Program-made: the position numbers and the translations under genes
Virus record (IMG/VR): IMGVR_UViG_2703718837_000002
Direction: 5' to 3' (one strand)
DNA from: a virus
Lineage: Duplodnaviria > Heunggongvirae > Uroviricota > Caudoviricetes
Length of the DNA stretch: 38,688 nt
The notes under the pieces: generated by a model
What the model saw: only the letters and a program-made list of their open reading frames with translations
What the model was told of the DNA's origin: nothing
Databases searched by the model: none
In this document: positions 9,699-34,466 of the stretch, in pieces
Position numbering within the stretch: position 1 is the first letter of the stretch
How the letters are laid out: the number at the start of each line of letters is the position of its first letter

Positions 9699-9715
9699 AA
9701 ATTAATTAGAGCAAT
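9699..9715 (-). promoter_or_regulatory. C1 operator upstream of ssb
   Basis: The minus strand reads ATTGCTCTAATTAATTT, 16 of 17 matches to the C1 operator consensus ATTGCTCTAATAAATTT. It lies 20 bp upstream of the ssb start. Confidence 0.75.
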
Positions 9716-10660: not shown

Positions 10661-10693
10661 ATTGCTCTAATAAATTTGATTTATTAGAGCAAA
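10661..10693. promoter_or_regulatory. paired inverted C1 operators, left end of immI-like module 1
   Basis: A perfect ATTGCTCTAATAAATTT at 10661-10677, plus an inverted copy. Together they form TTGCTCTAATAAAT-TTG-ATTTATTAGAGCAA, 14-bp perfect arms. Confidence 0.85.
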
Positions 10694-10718
10694 TAACCTA
10701 CCATCGAACACGGCTCTA

Positions 10719-10747
10719 TTGATCTCATCGTCGTTCAGGCTTATAGT
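10719..10747 (+). promoter_or_regulatory. sigma70 promoter candidate for the c4-icd-ant transcript (module 1)
   Basis: TTGATC-N17-TATAGT. Both hexamers and the spacing are conserved in module 2. A GATC lies within the -35 element. Confidence 0.55.
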
Positions 10748-10778
10748 TCCACCGTCGTAGCAAATTCTGCGACCAGGT

Positions 10779-10799
10779 TTGACAGCCTGAATACGAATG
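10779..10799 (+). promoter_or_regulatory. upstream c4-complementary site pair a1/b1 (module 1)
   Basis: TTGACAG-N7-ACGAATG. Both heptamers are exact complements of the c4 loop elements at 10904-10923. Confidence 0.55.
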
Positions 10800-10866
10800 C
10801 GGACAACCGCAGATTTCCGATATTGCGGTATTTTTGTGTCCGTAAACCACGTTACGCCCGAATTAT

Positions 10867-10943
10867 GGTGGGGCGTGATGGGGAGGCTTCGGCCTGCTGG
10901 TTTCATTCGTGCCAGTCTGTCAACCCTGTCACGTCCTGCCACC
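10867..10943 (+). ncRNA. c4: c4 antisense RNA, 77 nt (module 1)
   Basis: 77 nt. A closing stem (GGUGG...CCACC and CGUGA/UCACG), an AGGC-UUCG-GCCU hairpin, and a single-stranded CAUUCGU-GCCAGU-CUGUCAA element complementary to the sites flanking it. The size matches the published 77 nt c4 RNA. Confidence 0.8.
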
Positions 10944-10946
10944 TGT

Positions 10947-10985
10947 TTGACAGCGGGTCGCAGGTTGTTAAACCTACGAATGAGG
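10947..10985 (+). promoter_or_regulatory. c4 target a'/b' overlapping the icd ribosome binding site (module 1)
   Basis: TTGACAG-N22-ACGAATGAGG. The b' element abuts and overlaps the SD GAGG, 8 nt before the icd ATG. Confidence 0.65.
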
Positions 10986-10993
10986 CCGTAACT

Positions 10994-11215
10994 ATGGTTA
11001 ATGCCAATCCTTGCGCACGCCCTGAATTTATCTGGCGCTTTTACTCCTGCCAGAAACGTCACTATCACTTCGTAATTGCACCGACAGAAGATGAGGCCCG
11101 CTCTCTGCTTCCTGACGCTCCCTGCATTTTCTCTGCCCGCTTTTCCACTGATTCGCGCAACTCTCTCAGTTACTGGTGCCTCCCTGTTAACGCTTCTGCT
11201 CAGGAGGGACTATGA
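10994..11215 (+). CDS. icd: Icd-like 73-aa protein (module 1)
   Basis: 73 codons, the published size of P1 icd. Its stop overlaps the ant1 start (ATGA). Conserved in all three modules. Confidence 0.8.
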   Translation: MVNANPCARPEFIWRFYSCQKRHYHFVIAPTEDEARSLLPDAPCIFSARFSTDSRNSLSYWCLPVNASAQEGL

Positions 11216-12303
11216 GAACGTCATTAGTCACCCGTGAAGAAATGATTGAGGCAATTGAACAGCACACATCCTGTATCAGTACCAGGGATATACCGGGTGT
11301 TATTGCCAACTACTTCATGATCACCAAACAACTTTACCGGAGAAAGGACAAGAACGCGGTTCACCGCATTCTGTTGTCTGATATCCGCGAATACCTGCTC
11401 GAACAGGGTCGTCTTGATTATGCAACCGTAACCGCCGAAGCACGCAAGGAGGCACACAGGATGAAAGCAACTAATGTTAAATCAGAAAAAATTACCCTGC
11501 CTTCAGTTCAGGAATCCGAGCTGGTGGTTGTTCAGAATCAGTCTGATGAAATTCCCGTTCTGGAATGGCTGGGAGTGCGTGTCGTAACGACCGAAACTCT
11601 TGCTAGAGGGTATGGTACCGATGAAGCCAATATTCGTAAAAATTTGTCTCGCAACTCCGATCGCTTTGAAGAAGGCAAGCATTACTATCTCTTAACCGGT
11701 TCAAAGTTAAAGGAATTTAAAAGGCTAGTGACTATTAGTCACTTGGTTAGCAAATATACAAGTCAGGTAATTCTCTGGACAGAGCGCGGCGCTGCACGCA
11801 TGTCTAAGATCGTGGACACAAATGAAGCATGGGCATTCTTTGAAAAACTGGAAGACAGCTACTTCCGACAAAAAGAACAGCAACCGGTCTCAATTCCCCA
11901 GACGCTTCCAGAAGCTCTGCGCCTGGCTGCCGAGTTGGCAGAACAGAAAATGCAACTGGAACAACAGCTGGTGGCCGCAGCCCCTAAAGTCGATTTTGCC
12001 GACCGGGTATCAGTGGCTAAGGGGATCCTGATTGGAAATTTTGCAAAGGTTGTTGGACTTAAGCAAAACGCGCTGTTTGCCTGGTTACGGGAGAACGGCA
12101 TCCTGATTGCGTCCGGCGGACGTAAAAATGTACCGTTTCAGCAGTACATAAACGCCGGGTATTTCACGGTGAAAGAAGTGGTGCTGGATGATGAAGATGG
12201 CTACCAGATACGGTTGACGCCCCAGCTAACGGGGAAAGGCCAGCAGTGGCTGACGCGTAAACTGCTCGATGCAGGTTTATTAAAGCCTGTAGCGGCTGAG
12301 TGA
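11212..12303 (+). CDS. ant1: antirepressor Ant1 (363 aa), with in-frame Ant2 starting at 11461
   Basis: An ORF6N/KilA-N-like middle region (VRVVTTETLARGYG...RFEEGKHY) and a KilAC/ANT C-terminal domain. An internal ATG at codon 84 is preceded by AAGGAGG and gives 280 aa, consistent with P1 Ant1 (~42 kDa) and Ant2 (~32 kDa). Confidence 0.85.
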   Translation: MRTSLVTREEMIEAIEQHTSCISTRDIPGVIANYFMITKQLYRRKDKNAVHRILLSDIREYLLEQGRLDYATVTAEARKEAHRMKATNVKSEKITLPSVQESELVVVQNQSDEIPVLEWLGVRVVTTETLARGYGTDEANIRKNLSRNSDRFEEGKHYYLLTGSKLKEFKRLVTISHLVSKYTSQVILWTERGAARMSKIVDTNEAWAFFEKLEDSYFRQKEQQPVSIPQTLPEALRLAAELAEQKMQLEQQLVAAAPKVDFADRVSVAKGILIGNFAKVVGLKQNALFAWLRENGILIASGGRKNVPFQQYINAGYFTVKEVVLDDEDGYQIRLTPQLTGKGQQWLTRKLLDAGLLKPVAAE

Positions 12304-15175: not shown

Positions 15176-18100
15176 ATGAACAAGCTATCTATGGGGGTGT
15201 TTCGCTGTTCAAGTGTCAGCGAAATATTGAAATATATTAGGGCAATAACATTTCGCCGAGCGCCGATTAAATACGGCGTGGAAAAGGTGGAAGGCAAAAG
15301 CTATGACCGACTGCGCCGGGAGGCGAATCAGAAGGCGATAGATTTGCTTAATTCGCTGGTGGACGGCGCGACACTGACAGATGAACAGCGCCAGATCCTG
15401 GCTGGGTACACCGGTGAAGGCGGCATTGGCGGGTCCGTCTCCGAATATTACACACCAAAGCCGATCGCTGAAGGTGTCTGGGAGATCATGAAGCTCTACG
15501 GCGCGGACGTAGGTAACACTCTGGAACCATCGGCGGGAACCGGCGTTTTTAATGAGACAAAACCGGTTGGTACGGTGATGACCGCGACTGAGATCAGCAG
15601 TGTTTCCGGTCGTATAAACCAGTTGTTACACCCGGAAGACAGCGTACAGATTTCCCCGTTCGAACAGCTGGCTATAAGCACCCCTAACGATTCATTCGAC
15701 CATGTTGTGGGTAACGTTCCGTTCGGCGGTCGTGATAACACACGCAACATCGATAAGCCTTACGCAGAAGAAACGGACATGGGTTCTTACTTCATGCTCC
15801 GCATGCTGGACAAGATAAAGCCTGGCGGATTCATGTGTGTGATTGTGCCGCCGTCAATTGTTTCAGGTTCAAACATGAAGCGGTTACGCCTGCGCCTATC
15901 CCGTAAAGCTGAATTTCTTGGCGCTCACCGCTTGCCTACCGGTACTTTTGACGCAAACGGGACCAGTACAGTCGTTGATGTGGTGCTGATGCGCAAACAT
16001 CCGGCAGAGATGGCTGAGAAAATCCCCCTGGTGGATGAAAGCACTCTTGAATCGGCAAATGTGCTTTGGCCAACGTTTATTTCTGGCAAGTGGTTTGAAA
16101 AGGACGGCCGCCGGTTTGTTCATGGTACCCAGGAAAAGGGCTTCCAGGGGCGTATTGAGGTTCGTGCCGACGGGCAGATTGATAACCAGGCTCTTAAAGC
16201 GAAGCTGATTCATCGTTTCGAAAGTCGTATCGACTGGTCTTTGCTCGATATGGCTGAACCGTCACCGACCGCAGATGTTGTTGATGAAGGGGAAATGCGC
16301 CTGATTAATGGCGTATGGCAAAAATATGCTGGTGGTCGCTGGATTGAAGCTGATGCTGGTAAGGAGCTTAAGATTGATGCTGCCAGTTATGGCGCGGATA
16401 GCTGGGAGGCTCTTCAGCGTAACCTGACTACAACAGAAGGCCGTCTCGGTATGACATTTACCCAGATGGCAAATGTCCGCGATAAGTACACCACATCAAT
16501 CAGCGACGATATGGTGCAGCTGGTGGACTGGATTAACAGCCAGCCTGAAAAATACCGTGAACGCTTGTATCGCGGGGCGATGATTGGCCGGATGTTAATT
16601 GAATATCAGGATATGAAGGCCGCTGGGCATAGTGCTGAACAAATCGAACAGCAGCGCCTTTCTCTGGTGTCCCGTTTGCAGGCAGAGATTGACCGTTTTG
16701 GTAACCCCGGTCGCGGTCCGATAGCTAAATTATCGGGAAGCGGTGCGCGCGCCTGGTTTGCTTTCCGTGGTGCAATTAAGCTGGATGGCACTATTTCTGA
16801 CGAGCTGACAGGAAAGCTGGTTACGCATGATTCCAGCGCCAGTTATGACTCCACCAGCTATCAGGACACCCTGCGTTATCTCTATAGCGATCTTACCCGC
16901 GATCCAATCCAGCTCGATGATTTCCGCCTTGCGTTTACCGGCGAACTGCCAGCCAGTGATGAAGAGTTGCTTAATTTATTGGCCAGCACCCCTGGTATTG
17001 CGGTTTCACCGTATGGCGGGATTGTTCCGTTCGCCCGCGCCACCAGCGGCGACATTAACGAGATAGTGGCTCCAAAACAGGAATTCCTTGCCACACTCCC
17101 CGACGGTCCAGTAAAGAACAACGTCCTTAATCAGCTGGCAGCGATCGAAGAGAAGCGCATCAAGACGCCAGCAGAGAATATCCGCTTTAAGCTCAATAGC
17201 CGTTGGTTCGACCGCTCCGTCATTCTGGAGTTTTTGCAGGAAAACGGCTATCCGGATCTGCGCTATGTGCAGTCAGTGCAGCTGGAAGGCGACGAAATGG
17301 TTTCTGACACCTATCACGGTGGTGATGGTCTGTTCGTCGGACACCGATACGGTGTCGTCCAGCGCAAGGATAAAGAAACAGGAGAGATCCGCTACGAGTG
17401 GGACCGTAAATCAGGTGAAAACGCGACCGGGTTCCCGGCACAGCTGGAAAAGTATCTCAATGGTGCGCGTATCGGTGGCAAAGATAGCGCGACGGCGAAC
17501 GGCTACCGCGAGCAGATGGCACTGCTTGAGGACCAGTTCAATAAGTGGATCAAGACGCACGATCGCTACGATGAGCTGGTTGCCAAATACAACGATGTGT
17601 TCAATAGCAATATCCCGTATGAACACTCTGGCGATCCGCTTGGGTTGAAGGGATTAAGCGGTAAGCGCCAGCCATTTGATTACCAGAATAGCGAGGTGCG
17701 CCGACTGTCCGAAGATGGGCGCGGCATCCTGGGCTTCGGTACCGGGCTGGGTAAAACCACGACCGCGCTGGCGCTTGAGGCGTTCAACTATGAGAACGGT
17801 CGCTCCACCCGTACTGCTTATGTAGTGCCTAAATCAGTGCTGGAAAACTGGTATTACGAAGCAAAAGAGTTCCTGAGTGAAGAAGCCTTCAGTAACTACT
17901 TGTTCGTTGGACTGGATGTACTAATGGACGGCGATCAGATTCGCCAGGTTCCGGTGCTCGATGAGAACGGTAAACCTGTCCTTGGTGCTGATGGCACTCC
18001 ACTTATGCGCGATGCCCTTAAACTGGCAGATGAAGCCACTATCACGGCGCGTATGAACGCGATCCCGCACTCAAATTACCGTGCAGTCGTGTTTACCAAA

Positions 18101-24144: not shown

Positions 24145-24161
24145 ATTGCTCTAATAAATTT
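24145..24161 (+). promoter_or_regulatory. C1 operator, left end of immI-like module 2
   Basis: A perfect ATTGCTCTAATAAATTT. The inverted partner seen in module 1 is degenerate here (TTATTGAAACAA). Confidence 0.85.
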
Positions 24162-24202
24162 GATTTATTGAAACAAATAAACTACTATTGGACGCCAGAC
24201 TA

Positions 24203-24231
24203 TTGATCTTCCTGTTGTTCAGGCTTATAGT
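24203..24231 (+). promoter_or_regulatory. sigma70 promoter candidate for c4-icd-ant (module 2)
   Basis: TTGATC-N17-TATAGT, with hexamers identical to module 1. Confidence 0.55.
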
Positions 24232-24262
24232 TCCTACGTCATAGCAAATTCTGCGACCGGGT

Positions 24263-24283
24263 TTAGCAGCCTGAATGTACATG
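24263..24283 (+). promoter_or_regulatory. upstream c4-complementary site pair a1/b1 (module 2)
   Basis: TTAGCAG-N7-GTACATG, exact complements of the c4 elements at 24389-24408. Confidence 0.55.
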
Positions 24284-24351
24284 CGGACAACCGCAGATTT
24301 CCGATATTGCGGTATTTTTATGTCCGTAAAACCGCGTTACGCCCGAATTAT

Positions 24352-24428
24352 GGTGGGGCGTGATGGGGAGGCTTCGGCCTGCTGGTTTCATGTACGCCAG
24401 TCTGCTAACCCCGTCACGTCCTGCCACC
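24352..24428 (+). ncRNA. c4: c4 antisense RNA, 77 nt (module 2, different specificity)
   Basis: The same scaffold as module 1. The recognition elements read CAUGUAC and CUGCUAA instead of CAUUCGU and CUGUCAA. Confidence 0.8.
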
Positions 24429-24431
24429 TGT

Positions 24432-24470
24432 TTAGCAGCGGGTAGCAGGTTGTTAAACCTGTACATGAGG
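24432..24470 (+). promoter_or_regulatory. c4 target a'/b' overlapping the icd ribosome binding site (module 2)
   Basis: TTAGCAG-N22-GTACATGAGG, with the SD GAGG 8 nt before the icd ATG. Confidence 0.65.
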
Positions 24471-24478
24471 CCGTAACT

Positions 24479-24700
24479 ATGGTTAATGCCAATCCTTGCG
24501 CACGCCCTGAATTTATCTGGCGCTTCTATTCTTGTCAAAAACGTCACTATCACTTCGTTATCGCACCAACAGAAGATGAGGCACGTTCTCAGCTTCCGGA
24601 TGCTCCCTGCATTTTCTCCGCCCGCTTTTCTACCGATTCGCGCAATTCTCTCAGTTACTGGTGCCTCCCTGTTAACGCTTCGGCTCAGGAGGGGCTATGA
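24479..24700 (+). CDS. icd: Icd-like 73-aa protein (module 2)
   Basis: 73 codons, differing from the module 1 copy at one residue (L/Q). ATGA overlap with ant1. Confidence 0.8.
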   Translation: MVNANPCARPEFIWRFYSCQKRHYHFVIAPTEDEARSQLPDAPCIFSARFSTDSRNSLSYWCLPVNASAQEGL

Positions 24701-25809
24701 GAACGTCATTAGTCACCCGTGAAGAGATGATCGAGGCAATTGAACAGCACACTGCCTGTATCAGTACCAGGGATATACCAGGTGTTATTGCCAACTACTT
24801 CATGATCACCAAACAACTTTACCGGAGAAAGGACAAGAACGCGGTTCACCGCATTCTGCTAACCGATATCCGTGAATACCTGCTCGAACAGGGTCATCTG
24901 AATTATGCAACCGTCGCAGCCGAAGCACGCAAGGAGGCACACAGAATGAAAGCAACTAACGTTAAATCAGAAAAAATTCATGCACCTTCAGTTCAGGAAT
25001 CAGAGCTGGTGGTTGTTCAGAATCAGCCTGATGAAATTCCCGTTCTGGAATGGCAGGGAGTACGTGTCGTGACAACCGAAACTCTTGCTAGAGGGTATGG
25101 GACCGAAACTAATAACATCAAAGTTAACTATACGCGTAATGCTGATCGCTTTGAGGAAGGTAAACATTACTTTCTACTAACTGGTTCAAAATTAAAAGAA
25201 TTGAAGGACAAGGTTACTCAAAGTAACTTAGTCGCACCGCGAGCAAAGCACCTCACTCTCTGGACGGAACGCGGCGCAGCCCGCCACGCTAAAATGATCG
25301 AAACCGATCAGGCATGGGCATTCTTTGAAAAACTGGAAGACAGCTACTTCCGACAAAAAGAACAGCAACCGGTTGCAATCCCCCAGACGCTTCCAGAAGC
25401 CCTGCGCCTGGCTGCCGAACTGGCTGAACAAAAGCAACTTCTGGAACAGAAAGCCCACCAGCTAAATCAGCAGCTGGTGGCCGCAGCCCCCAAAGTCGAT
25501 TTTGCCGACCGGGTATCAGTGGCCAAGGGGATCCTGATTGGGAATTTTGCAAAGGTTGTTGGACTTAAGCAAAACGCGCTGTTTGCCTGGTTACGGGAGA
25601 ACGGCATCCTGATAGCGTCCGGCGGACGTAAAAATGTGCCGTTCCAGCAATACATCAACGCCGGGTATTTTTCTGTGAAAGAAGTGGTGCTGGATGATGA
25701 AGATGGCTATCAGATACGACTGACGCCCCAGTTAACGGGGAAAGGCCAGCAGTGGTTGACGCGTAAACTGCTCGATGCTGGCTTGTTAAAACCGGTGGCG
25801 GCTGAGTGA
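24697..25809 (+). CDS. ant1: antirepressor Ant1 (370 aa), with in-frame Ant2 starting at 24946
   Basis: The same architecture as module 1. The central ~65 aa are divergent, and there is a 7-aa insertion in the coiled-coil linker. Confidence 0.85.
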   Translation: MRTSLVTREEMIEAIEQHTACISTRDIPGVIANYFMITKQLYRRKDKNAVHRILLTDIREYLLEQGHLNYATVAAEARKEAHRMKATNVKSEKIHAPSVQESELVVVQNQPDEIPVLEWQGVRVVTTETLARGYGTETNNIKVNYTRNADRFEEGKHYFLLTGSKLKELKDKVTQSNLVAPRAKHLTLWTERGAARHAKMIETDQAWAFFEKLEDSYFRQKEQQPVAIPQTLPEALRLAAELAEQKQLLEQKAHQLNQQLVAAAPKVDFADRVSVAKGILIGNFAKVVGLKQNALFAWLRENGILIASGGRKNVPFQQYINAGYFSVKEVVLDDEDGYQIRLTPQLTGKGQQWLTRKLLDAGLLKPVAAE

Positions 25810-27929: not shown

Positions 27930-27946
27930 AGAATTATTAGAGCAAT
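27930..27946 (-). promoter_or_regulatory. C1 operator (immC cluster)
   Basis: The minus strand reads ATTGCTCTAATAATTCT, 15 of 17 matches. Confidence 0.65.
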
Positions 27947-28012: not shown

Positions 28013-28029
28013 ATTGCTCTAATAAATTA
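28013..28029 (+). promoter_or_regulatory. C1 operator overlapping a promoter reading toward coi and c1
   Basis: ATTGCTCTAATAAATTA, 16 of 17 matches. TTGACA lies immediately upstream (28007-28012) and TATAGT at 28028-28033. Confidence 0.8.
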
Positions 28030-29471: not shown

Positions 29472-30584
29472 TTATTCAGCCGCCACCGGTTTTAACAAGC
29501 CAGCATCGAGCAGTTTACGCGTCAACCACTGCTGGCCTTTACCCGTTAATTGGGGCGTCAGCCGTATCTGGTAGCCATTTTCATCATCCAGCACCACTTC
29601 TTTCACCGTGAAATACCCCGCGTTGATGTACTGCTGGAACGGCACATTTTTACGTCCACCGGACGCTATCAGGATGCCGTTCTCCCGTAACCAGACAAAC
29701 AGCGCGTTTTGCTTAAGTCCAACAACCTTTGCAAAATTCCCAATCAGGATCCCTTTAGCTACTGATACCCGGTCGGCAAAATCGACTTTAGGAGCGGCGG
29801 CCACCAGCTGCTGATTTAGCTGGTGGGCTTTCTGTTCCAGAAGTTGCTTTTGTTCAGCCAGCTCGGCAGCCAGACGCAGGGCTTCTGGAAGCGTCTGGGG
29901 GATTGCGATCGGTTGCTGTTCTTTTTGTCGGAAGTAGTTGTCTTCCAGTTTTTCAAAGAATGCCCATGCTTCATTTGTGTCCACGATCTTAGACATGCGT
30001 GCAGCGCCGCGCTCTGTCCAGAGTGTAAGGCTTCTGGCGTTCTTACCAACAGAGTAACTTCCGGTTACTCTGTTCTTAAATTCTCTTAATTTTAAACCAG
30101 TTAGAAGAAAGTAATGCTTACCTTCTTCAAAGCGGTCAAGGTTGCGAGACAAATTGTTGCGAATATTGGCTTCATCGACCCCATACCCTCTAGCAAGAGT
30201 TTCGGTTGTCACGACACGTACTCCCTGCCATTCCAGAACGGGAATTTCATCCGGCTGATTCTGAACAACCACCAGCTCTGATTCCTGAACTGAAGGTGCA
30301 TAAATTTTTTCTGATTTAACGTTAGTTGCTTTCATTCTGTGTGCCTCCTTGCGTGCTTCGGCTGCGACGGTTGCGTAATTCAGATGACCCTGTTCGAGCA
30401 GGTATTCACGGATATCGGTTAGCAGAATGCGGTGAACCGCGTGTTTGTCCTTTCTCCGGTAAAGTTGTTTGGTGATCATGAAGTAGTTGGCAATAACGCC
30501 CGGTATATCCTTGGTACTGATACAGGCAGTGTGCTGTTCAATTGCCTCGATCATCTCTTCACGGGTGACTAATGACGTTCTCAT
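29472..30584 (-). CDS. ant1: antirepressor Ant1 (370 aa), with in-frame Ant2 starting at 30335 (module 3)
   Basis: The same architecture as modules 1 and 2. A third variant of the central region. AAGGAGG precedes the internal ATG. Confidence 0.85.
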   Translation of the reverse strand: MRTSLVTREEMIEAIEQHTACISTKDIPGVIANYFMITKQLYRRKDKHAVHRILLTDIREYLLEQGHLNYATVAAEARKEAHRMKATNVKSEKIYAPSVQESELVVVQNQPDEIPVLEWQGVRVVTTETLARGYGVDEANIRNNLSRNLDRFEEGKHYFLLTGLKLREFKNRVTGSYSVGKNARSLTLWTERGAARMSKIVDTNEAWAFFEKLEDNYFRQKEQQPIAIPQTLPEALRLAAELAEQKQLLEQKAHQLNQQLVAAAPKVDFADRVSVAKGILIGNFAKVVGLKQNALFVWLRENGILIASGGRKNVPFQQYINAGYFTVKEVVLDDENGYQIRLTPQLTGKGQQWLTRKLLDAGLLKPVAAE

Positions 30585-30802
30585 AGTCCCTCCTGAGCAG
30601 AAGCGTTAACAGGGAGGCACCAGTAACTGAGAGAGTTGCGCGAATCAGTGGAAAAGCGGGCAGAGAAAATGCAGGGAGCGTCAGGAAGCTGAGAACGGGC
30701 CTCATCTTCTGTCGGTGCAATAACGAAGTGATAGTGACGTTTCTGGCAGGAATAGAAGCGCCAGATGAATTCAGGATGAGTTGGGGTAGGGACAGTAGCC
30801 AT
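30581..30802 (-). CDS. icd: Icd-like 73-aa protein (module 3, variant N-terminus)
   Basis: 73 codons. The first 9 residues differ (MATVPTPTH versus MVNANPCAR) and the rest is essentially identical. ATGA overlap with ant1. Confidence 0.75.
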   Translation of the reverse strand: MATVPTPTHPEFIWRFYSCQKRHYHFVIAPTEDEARSQLPDAPCIFSARFSTDSRNSLSYWCLPVNASAQEGL

Positions 30803-30810
30803 AATGGCAG

Positions 30811-30852
30811 CCTCCTTTGACTAAGTTAAGGAGCTACCGCGTGAGGTCTCAA
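30811..30852 (-). promoter_or_regulatory. target a'/b' overlapping the icd ribosome binding site (module 3)
   Basis: The minus strand reads TTGAGAC-N24-GTCAAAGGAGG. Both elements complement the loop of the RNA at 30860-30938. The SD GGAGG is included. Confidence 0.6.
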
Positions 30853-30859
30853 TCTCAAT

Positions 30860-30938
30860 GGCGGTAGCACTGACTGGGTTGAGACTACCGGCGTCAAAGG
30901 GAACCGGCCTGCCTTTCGGCAGCCCAGCCAGCACTACC
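30860..30938 (-). ncRNA. c4-analogous antisense RNA on an unrelated scaffold (module 3)
   Basis: About 76-79 nt. A 13-bp closing stem (GGUAGUGCUGGCU / AGUCAGUGCUACC, including G-U pairs), a CUGCC-GAAA-GGCAG hairpin, and the single-stranded elements CCCUUUGAC and GUCUCAA. Confidence 0.65.
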
Positions 30939-30985
30939 ATTGATTTCGGAGCTAAACGCTACGTATGGCTGTGCGATGGCATGAC

Positions 30986-31011
30986 ACAAAAAAAAGACGC
31001 TTTCGGCGTCT
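30986..31011 (-). terminator. intrinsic terminator inside the module 3 leader, between the decoy site and the RNA gene
   Basis: The minus strand reads AGACGC-CGAAA-GCGTCT followed by T8. Confidence 0.55.
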
Positions 31012-31017
31012 GTGTCG

Positions 31018-31042
31018 CCTTTGACATTATTCGGGGTCTCAA
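31018..31042 (-). promoter_or_regulatory. upstream complementary site pair a1/b1 (module 3)
   Basis: The minus strand reads TTGAGAC-N10-GTCAAAGG. Confidence 0.5.
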
Positions 31043-31142
31043 TCCCGGCACCCGTTTTAATGAGGTGCCTGATAAGCATAAACCGAAAATGCCTCAAGGC
31101 GCAAGAGGTCAGGTTCAATGTAACATCGGCAGTTAAAAAACA

Positions 31143-31159
31143 CAATTTATTAGAGCAAA
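31143..31159 (-). promoter_or_regulatory. C1 operator, start of module 3, abutting the pacB stop
   Basis: The minus strand reads TTTGCTCTAATAAATTG, 15 of 17 matches. Confidence 0.7.
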
Positions 31160-34449: not shown

Positions 34450-34466
34450 CAATACATTAGAGCAAT
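34450..34466 (-). promoter_or_regulatory. C1 operator-like site upstream of lpa
   Basis: The minus strand reads ATTGCTCTAATGTATTG, 14 of 17 matches with a perfect left 11 nt. C1 control of lpa is established for P1. Confidence 0.55.

Follow-up and report, generated by a model that had tools for sequence, protein, structure and literature searches.

What does the leader in front of the c4 antisense RNA do in P1-like immunity operons, and in particular the stretch that joins its decoy site b1 to c4? The sites a1 and b1 are annotated as “putative” in the genome of P1, c4 having been described in 1990. In the literature apart from the primary P1 papers, the sole published idea about them that we found, as set out in the supplement of PMC2864571, is competition with a2/b2 for c4; the same literature, the primary P1 papers again aside, yielded no statement on an attenuation mechanism for P1 or P7. 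The original prediction for this locus was that the 3′ end of b1 enters a small hairpin, one arm of which can instead build a terminator upstream of c4, so that pairing of c4 with a1/b1 would favor termination and give negative feedback on the precursor transcript. Here we follow up this proposal in the window, i.e., the whole 38,688-nt stretch of DNA that was analyzed (IMG/VR record IMGVR_UViG_2703718837_000002).

Three immunity modules and the anatomy of their leaders

We identify the window as a P1-like element; it contains three c4-icd-ant immunity modules (Table 1), and the surroundings of the feature under study are 85-93% identical to immI of phage P1 and its relatives. Each module comprises a C1 operator, a leader, a c4 RNA, an icd gene, and an antirepressor with ANT and ORF6N domains. 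An Rfam search of the window recovered three C4 antisense RNAs, with c4-a1b1 upstream of the first two and isrK upstream of the third; the C4 matches lie 26-46 nt downstream of the leaders on the same strand, and the leader sites complement both c4 loops. The a/b sites and the c4 loops vary in concert among the modules, the specificity sequences being UUUGACAG/ACGAAUG in module 1, UUUAGCAG/GUACAUG in module 2, and AUUGAGAC/GUCAAAGG in module 3, and modules that differ in this way should not cross-react. Two to three modules are also present on several P1-like contigs of IMG/VR, e.g., IMGVR_UViG_2698536372_000019 (L021, L025, L044). The operator of module 1 is the counterpart of the annotated Oc4 in P1, and at up to three mismatches the window holds 12 C1-operator-like sites against 0.22 expected by chance (among them 9699-9715, 15230-15246, 27930-27946, 28013-28029, and 34450-34466); given this excess, C1 control appears to be dense across the window, beyond the three immI modules.

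Table 1 Coordinates of the immunity modules in the window and of the parts of their leaders
Feature	Position	Strand	Evidence or remark
Module 1, complete immI-like module	10661-12303	+	
C1 operator (Op51/Oc4-like)	10661-10677	+	exact match to ATTGCTCTAATAAATTT
P51b (P1c4)-like sigma-70 promoter, TTGATC-17-TATAGT	10719-10747	+	promoter scan (-35 box 10719-10724, -10 box 10742-10747); aligns with annotated P1c4 of P1
Leader hairpins 1 and 2	10754-10789	+	Rfam c4-a1b1, 57.1 bits; RNAfold
a1 (TTTGACAG)	10778-10785	+	in loop of hairpin 2
b1 (TACGAATG), single-stranded decoy site	10792-10799	+	complementary to c4 loop CAUUCGUG
Anti-terminator hairpin, UGCGG-ACAA-CCGCA	10798-10811	+	predicted, dG -7.0 kcal/mol; arms 10798-10802 and 10807-10811
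Terminator-like hairpin, ACCGCAG..UUGCGGU, then AUUUUU	10806-10835	+	isrK model places terminator stem here
Outer stem, 3′ arm (UGUCCGUA)	10837-10844	+	pairs with 10798-10805; MFE of 10755-10870
c4 antisense RNA	10861-10946	+	Rfam C4, 69.8 bits
Module 2, complete immI-like module	24145-25809	+	
C1 operator	24145-24161		
Leader, anatomy as in module 1	24238-24328	+	alignment; Rfam c4-a1b1, 47.5 bits
b1	24276-24283	+	
Anti-terminator hairpin	24282-24295	+	
Terminator hairpin	24290-24313	+	
TATTTTT	24313-24319	+	
Outer stem, 3′ arm	24321-24328	+	
c4 antisense RNA	24346-24431	+	Rfam C4, 70.8 bits; loop specificity differs
Module 3, complete immI-like module	29472-31159	-	
C1 operator	31143-31159		
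Leader, IsrK/seqA-t1-type	30983-31068	-	Rfam isrK, 59.8 bits; folding
a1	31043-31036	-	
b1	31025-31018	-	
Competing arms GGCG and CGCC	31019-31016; 31008-31005	-	
Terminator, AGACGC-CGAAA-GCGTCT	31011-30995	-	
U8	30995-30988	-	
Outer stem, GACACA with UGUGUC	31016-31011; 30988-30983	-	
c4 antisense RNA	30857-30944	-	Rfam C4, 75.4 bits

Behind the P51b-like promoter, modules 1 and 2 have two leader hairpins, the second of which carries a1 in its loop, then b1, a 5-bp hairpin, the terminator hairpin with UAUUUUU, and an outer stem. We place the probable transcription start near 10754, where the 5′ end of the isrK model also aligns. A start site downstream of a1/b1 had been named as an observation that would refute the original prediction; the promoter scan and the annotated P1c4/P51b promoter of P1, which also lies upstream of a1, both put the promoter ahead of the two sites, and the scan, whose only call was the P51b-like site, gave no promoter within the spacer between b1 and c4. 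With b1 defined as the longest contiguous complement to c4, positions 10792-10799 are the best such complement to the c4 of module 1 itself. In module 2 and in P1 this site has changed along with c4 and b2, and a1 likewise varies jointly with the c4 loop and a2 between the modules and P1.

The strings on which the proposal was built, GCGG-ACAA-CCGC (10799-10802, 10803-10806, and 10807-10810) and the alternative partners CCGCA (10807-10811) and TGCGG (10824-10828), separated by 12 nt and followed by TATTTTT (10829-10835), are all in place. Both hairpins turn out somewhat larger than described: the competing one has 5 bp rather than 4, U10798-A10811 being added, and the terminator hairpin extends beyond CCGCA/TGCGG to A10806-U10829. 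The 5′ arm of the small hairpin takes in the last two nucleotides of b1 (U10798 and G10799), and CCGCA is common to both helices, as the 3′ arm of the anti-terminator and the 5′ arm of the terminator. The terminator hairpin of modules 1 and 2 has five GC-rich pairs, a bulge (a G in module 1), two to four upper A-U pairs, a large loop, and the tail UAUUUUUGUGU, with a dG of -7.5 to -8.5 kcal/mol in module 1. A simple terminator scan did not call it in either module, owing to its loop limit of 8 nt; the minus-strand terminator at 10811-10798 was set aside, as it is merely the small hairpin read in reverse.

To these parts we add an outer stem, with a core of CGGACA (10800-10805) paired to TGTCCG (10837-10842), that encloses both the terminator and the U-run. 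The predicted minimum free energy (MFE) structure of the full leader combines the parts into a single long hairpin, whose internal loop holds the U-run (z = -2.2). The outer stem is possible only in read-through RNA and would bury the U-run; its role may be reset, stability, or the hiding of a possible Hfq site.

The spacer between b1 and c4 is nearly invariant among module 1, module 2, and P1, where the adjoining specificity bases vary, and the feature therefore belongs to classical P1. As predicted, module 2 carries the hairpin and terminator sequence of module 1 unchanged (24282-24319). Its hairpin 1 (24238-24257) has an A-C mismatch at A24241 (GTCATAG as opposed to GTCGTAG in the closest relatives, e.g., L017), which lowers the c4-a1b1 score to 47.5 bits and alters the predicted fold of the leader. 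Module 3 had been described as unrelated sequence following the same logic. Its parts do lie where they had been placed, but the sequence is that of a homologue: the isrK match (59.8 bits) spans 30990-31068 on the minus strand, and the motif UUUUUGUGUC is found in all three modules and in P4. The terminator of module 3 is a classical one, with 6 bp and U8.

Relationship to the IsrK and seqA leaders

At a permissive threshold, positions 1-77 of the isrK model (RF01394) align full-length to 10754-10835 of module 1 at 44.1 bits (E 7e-9 in that search), a score below the gathering score of 50 bits, which module 3 exceeds. The alignment sets the terminator stem and U-tail of the model on ACCGCAG..GCGGU AUUUUU of module 1, and according to model alignment and RNAfold all three modules have the isrK-type architecture of two 5′ hairpins, a single-stranded site, and a stem-loop with a U-tail. 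The c4-a1b1 model (RF03163; gathering score 46.7 bits) matches 10741-10793 and 24225-24277, and module 3 falls below its gathering score. Outside the window, isrK and C4 also match the seqA-t1 region and the cI RNA of P4, as well as N15, phiKO2, PY54, and related Klebsiella phages; in three N15-like phages (phiKO2, NAR688, and 48ST307) c4-a1b1 and isrK fall on one element, and in N15 and phiKO2 a terminator is annotated at the corresponding place (GenBank). The order of parts common to P4, module 3, and modules 1 and 2 is hairpin 1, hairpin 2 with site a, site b, the outer 5′ arm, the terminator, the U-run, a G, and the outer 3′ arm. Judged by sequence and position, the hairpin and U-run of modules 1 and 2 appear to be the counterpart of the IsrK terminator and of P4 t1. 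The two Rfam models overlap and describe a single leader. Their overlap is seen at 10741-10835 of the window and at 335-421 of L093; isrK lies outside clan CL00128. The first ca. 13 positions of the c4-a1b1 model fall on the -10 box (TATAGT) and on what lies between it and the inferred start, i.e., on untranscribed DNA.

For a wider comparison IMG/VR was searched with a pattern of hairpins 1 and 2 only, which gave 122 matches, 95 of them with a c4 located 60-200 nt downstream. Icd-based retrieval added 7 contig loci and 80 IMG/VR loci; a protein search with Icd returned a narrow family, and these 80 loci, all close P1-likes, supplied within-type variation and no deep divergence. Pattern matches, Icd-derived loci, and phage records together made up 130 unique leaders, in 124 of which a hairpin with a U-rich tail lies between b1 and c4 (median hairpin dG -6.2 kcal/mol; 7-8 U in the 10-nt tail in 106 of the 124). 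In an alignment of the 63 short-arm leaders, 91.5% of the cells of the terminator helix are paired, one pair alternating between GC (36) and CG (19), and none of 500 shuffles matched the score. Among Pseudomonas copies (Weinberg alignment) b1 is followed by a hairpin and often by a terminator; some copies are terminator-less, in others the small hairpin and the terminator have no arm in common, and we do not extend the shared-arm logic to them.

Predicted switching and the alternatives to it

We propose, with a probability of roughly 0.5, that the hairpin and U-run form a leaky c4-sensitive attenuator that is homologous to P4 t1 and exerts negative feedback on c4. We base this reading on the homology with isrK and P4, the covariation of the terminator and the outer stem, the complementarity of the b1 segment, and the predicted energetics, together with the published behavior of P4 and IsrK. 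The attenuator would sit in the leader of the c4-icd-ant transcript started at the P51b-like promoter. In the nascent leader UGCGG-ACAA-CCGCA would form first and sequester the 5′ arm of the terminator, most polymerases would then read through, and c4 would be made. In the read-through RNA the 5′ strand would re-pair with the downstream UGUCCG, burying the terminator and U-run in the long hairpin, i.e., a reset. Once mature c4 is abundant, it would dock on a1 in the loop of hairpin 2 and on b1; the c4:b1 pairing would cost the anti-terminator two of its five pairs and let the terminator hairpin form, and transcription would stop near 10833-10836. The outcome would be negative feedback on c4 synthesis and the release of a ca. 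80-nt RNA with a1/b1, able to titrate c4. We infer both that termination takes place in vivo at the weak site of module 1 and that it depends on c4; weighing against this are the bulged stem, the UAUUUUU tail, and the fact that c4 itself must be made through the terminator. More tentatively, a1/b1 might be regarded as the sensor of a trans-RNA-responsive attenuator, in which occupancy of b1 would flip a near-isoenergetic pair and hold the c4 set point while surplus transcription went into the IsrK-like decoy; three such non-cross-reacting circuits would stand side by side in the window, and the whole C4/IsrK family would have conserved the three-strand logic and the stem that resets read-through RNA.

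The folding predictions for module 1 agree with such a switch. Less than 1 kcal/mol separates its anti-terminator state from its terminator state, and the direct path between them crosses a barrier of 9.3 kcal/mol. With the RNA 3′ end at 10811-10823, the predicted occupancy of the anti-terminator is 1.0 when b1 is free and falls from 0.94 to 0.14 when b1 is blocked; with the end at 10828-10835, that of the terminator rises from 0.04-0.39 for free b1 to 0.98-1.0 for blocked b1; once the end reaches 10843 or beyond, the long hairpin takes over (0.98) in either case. The model thus predicts that blockage of b1 flips module 1 from anti-terminator to terminator, and blockage of the a1 loop alone has nearly no predicted effect in most relatives. 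The claim that c4 favors the terminator therefore stands for module 1 as a folding prediction, but it is lineage-dependent. Across the 20 P1-type variants the c4-free probability of the terminator runs from 0.0 to 0.95, in an equilibrium model that is noisy, and both P1 itself (0.95) and module 2 (0.84) favor the terminator without c4. The high value in P1 arises because its a1 (UUGACA) and b1 (UGUUAG) can pair with each other. This predicted pairing (L001, 748-770) is absent from modules 1 and 2 of the window. For P1-type leaders we consider a c4-responsive interpretation plausible.

One rival reading is a constitutive leaky terminator, which would stop a fixed fraction of transcripts whatever the level of c4, with the short IsrK-like a1/b1 RNA serving as a c4 sponge and the small hairpin only tuning read-through. 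It is compatible with the c4-responsive model, and we think it unlikely as the whole explanation. In its short form IsrK is stable and activates the read-through transcript in trans (PMC4825925), Citron and Schuster proposed a decoy role for a1/b1 (the competition idea is quoted in supplement 1 of PMC2864571), and a decoy would equally need a1/b1 to vary with c4 specificity. Leaders with strong terminators also fit it, since blocking b1 hardly alters their predicted terminator occupancy: in these relatives, P4 included, the value goes from 0.91 to 1.0, an equilibrium effect so small that the alternative hairpin may not be the route taken by CI at t1. The same holds for module 3, where the 4-bp competitor that had been predicted is present but barely shifts the equilibrium occupancy of the terminator (0.85 to 1.0). 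In P4, module 3, PY54, N15, and phiKO2 the small hairpin is nonetheless predicted to be in place already when the 3′ arm emerges.

What a constitutive terminator leaves unexplained is that the segment at the 3′ end of b1 is complementary to the 5′ arm of the terminator across diverged lineages; in addition, P4 CI is reported to control early termination via seqA (PMC10111431). The complementarity recurs in divergent lineages, as the shared-arm logic of the original prediction would have it, but covariation in a fixed register, taken from the alignment of 63 short-arm leaders, is non-significant: the anti-terminator GGCG:CGCC is paired in 77.0% of cells as compared to 75.8% in shuffled alignments (83 of 500 shuffles), in a test whose power is limited by the invariance of the main P4-like group at these columns. 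A register-free test took the best contiguous helix between the last three nucleotides of b1 plus the bases that follow and the terminator 5′ arm plus three loop nucleotides. Over 47 distinct combinations the mean helix score was 6.15, against 4.20±0.16 for shuffled letters and 5.77±0.09 for permuted partners (0 of 2000 each); over 28 class representatives it was 6.23, against 4.27±0.20 (p 0.0002) and 5.77±0.14 (p 0.0006), respectively, and as the sequences are related these p-values are optimistic. Terminator parsing mis-assigned the P1-type leaders, because their anti-terminator wins the local MFE, so most of them are absent from the 47-combination test, and one representative was added by hand to the 28-class test. 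In nearly all combinations one to three bases of b1 lie inside the best helix. Lineages with the P1 spacing change all three strands together: the b1-overlapping strand, terminator 5′ arm, and 3′ arm are UGCGG, CCGCA, and UGCGG in the P1 type, GGCGC, GCGCC, and GGCGC in the L205 group, AGCGC, GCGCU, and AGCGC in L111, and (A)GCGC, GCGCC, and GGCGC in L165, which has the loop AUUUCCGAU as in P1.

It is rather improbable that the leader is instead a structural element, i.e., a long irregular hairpin that helps the c4 precursor to fold, to stay stable, or to be processed by RNase P or another RNase, and in which the U-run would be a decayed ancestral terminator. Such a role would agree with the MFE fold of the full leader and with the cutting of c4 from its precursor by RNase P (as cited in PMC5499578). 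It would also agree with the strong covariation of the outer stem in the 63-leader alignment, 76% paired versus 69.6% after shuffling, with double changes at 7 of 7 pairs and a score equaled in 0 of 500 shuffles, and with the weakness of the P1-type terminator, the weakest of the family, the tail being reduced to UAUUUUC with only U4 in L010 and L011. In one IMG/VR lineage (L116, L139, L163, L182, L191, and L212) the U-run has degenerated to UUAUUAU beside a weak terminator hairpin, while the outer stem and c4 are retained; it looks as if these leaders had lost their terminator naturally, and because L116, L139, L163, and L191 lost the U-run yet kept the outer stem, the outer hairpin would seem to have some value of its own. 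However, the polymerase is already beyond the U-run when it makes the outer 3′ arm, and this reading therefore cannot account for the conservation of a hairpin with a U-tail in 124 of 130 leaders. It also leaves unexplained the P1-specific strengthening of the b1-overlapping hairpin (5 bp and a tetraloop), and the U5 run is retained in 17 of the 20 unique P1-type variants.

Chance would mean that the brief GC-rich complementarities and the T-run of this intergenic spacer have no function. This is a very remote prospect: the stems are only 4-7 bp long and the site went unflagged by the simple terminator scan, but the full-length isrK match, the near-invariance of the spacer, and the recurrence and covariation across the family contradict it.

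Comparison with known systems

Control of termination by c4-type RNAs is already known for P4 and has been suggested for IsrK; here P1-type leaders are placed in this family. The placement suggests a testable function for a1/b1, autoregulatory attenuation together with decoy production, and unites the RNA immunity of P1, P4, N15, and Gifsy-1 under one leader design. Several orthogonal copies are common on P1-like plasmids, which matters for predicting heteroimmunity and prophage induction. For annotation, the point is that the Rfam models isrK and c4-a1b1 overlap on a single element. The c4-a1b1 motif, to which modules 1 and 2 belong, ends just 5′ of b1, and its published description (Weinberg 2010, PMC2864571) makes no mention of a terminator or an alternative hairpin.

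The seqA-t1-CI immunity leader of P4 (Sabbattini 1995; Briani et al. 2000, pmid 10844696) and the P1-type leader have their parts in the same order: behind a constitutive promoter stand two hairpins, the second with the first target site in its loop, then a second site that is single-stranded, a terminator hairpin, a U-run, a GUGUC outer arm, and a C4-family RNA that is cut from read-through RNA. The P4 terminator t1, between PLE and cI, reportedly works only with CI and seqA, terminates better in vitro when CI is present, and serves the autoregulation of CI (Briani, Ghisotti and Deho, 2000); deletion of t1 is reported in the same work to have raised CI RNA. The two systems differ in strength, P4 t1 being a strong terminator (6 GC-rich bp and U7) with a 4-bp GGCG:CGCC competitor, whereas the P1-type hairpin is weaker, bulged, and long-looped, has U5, and faces a stronger 5-bp tetraloop competitor. 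They also differ in downstream targets, which in P4 control the replication genes by termination and in P1 (a2/b2) act on icd translation. PMC10111431 and PMC4825925 describe P4 CI RNA as controlling early termination through seqA binding.

In the Salmonella prophage Gifsy-1, IsrK has a Rho-independent terminator at its end, some transcripts continue into orf45-anrP, and a stable processed RNA, STnc1160, lies downstream (Hershko-Shalev 2016, PMC4825925). The authors of that paper consider IsrK structurally homologous to seqA of P4 and raise the possibility that its terminator is modulated by STnc1160, on the model of CI in P4; one co-expression test (S14 Fig of that paper) was without the effect on growth arrest predicted by this idea. 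Barquist et al. equated IsrK/C4 with seqA/CI (PMC3632133). The likeness to the IsrK-STnc1160 pair extends to module 3, above the isrK gathering score, and to module 1, a full-length match below it, with module 2 nearly identical in sequence. The Gifsy-1 system is unlike ours in its emphasis on short IsrK activating translation of the read-through transcript and in having orf45-anrP rather than icd-ant downstream. The IsrK paper (PMC4825925) also describes a “helix b-I”, in which the middle of IsrK pairs with the 3′ part of orf45, as proven by compensatory mutations, with c4 unmentioned; this helix looks like the a1:a′ pairing, i.e., the leader with an embedded c4-like RNA in cis (cf. 31043-31036 and 30944-30857). 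The N15-type locus (icd-antA-antB with a small processed RNA) has the same isrK and C4 arrangement and an annotated Rho-independent terminator at the equivalent place, but differs from the P1 type in its strong terminator and GCGC:GCGC competitor.

The nearest mechanistic parallel we considered outside the family is that of pT181 RNAI/II, pIP501 RNAIII, and pAMbeta1. In these systems a small RNA binds the nascent leader, blocks an anti-terminator, and thereby lets an intrinsic terminator form ahead of the gene under control; their antisense RNAs are encoded in cis on the opposite strand and are fully complementary. Module 1 resembles them in its mutually exclusive helices that share a strand and in an antisense site that overlaps the anti-terminator. 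It is unlike them in its regulator: c4 is encoded further downstream on the leader strand, becomes available by processing, uses two sites of 7-8 nt for pairing, and would regulate its own precursor. The element of module 1 would thus work like a pT181-type attenuator without being a member of that type, since c4 is encoded on the same strand and pairs through two short sites.
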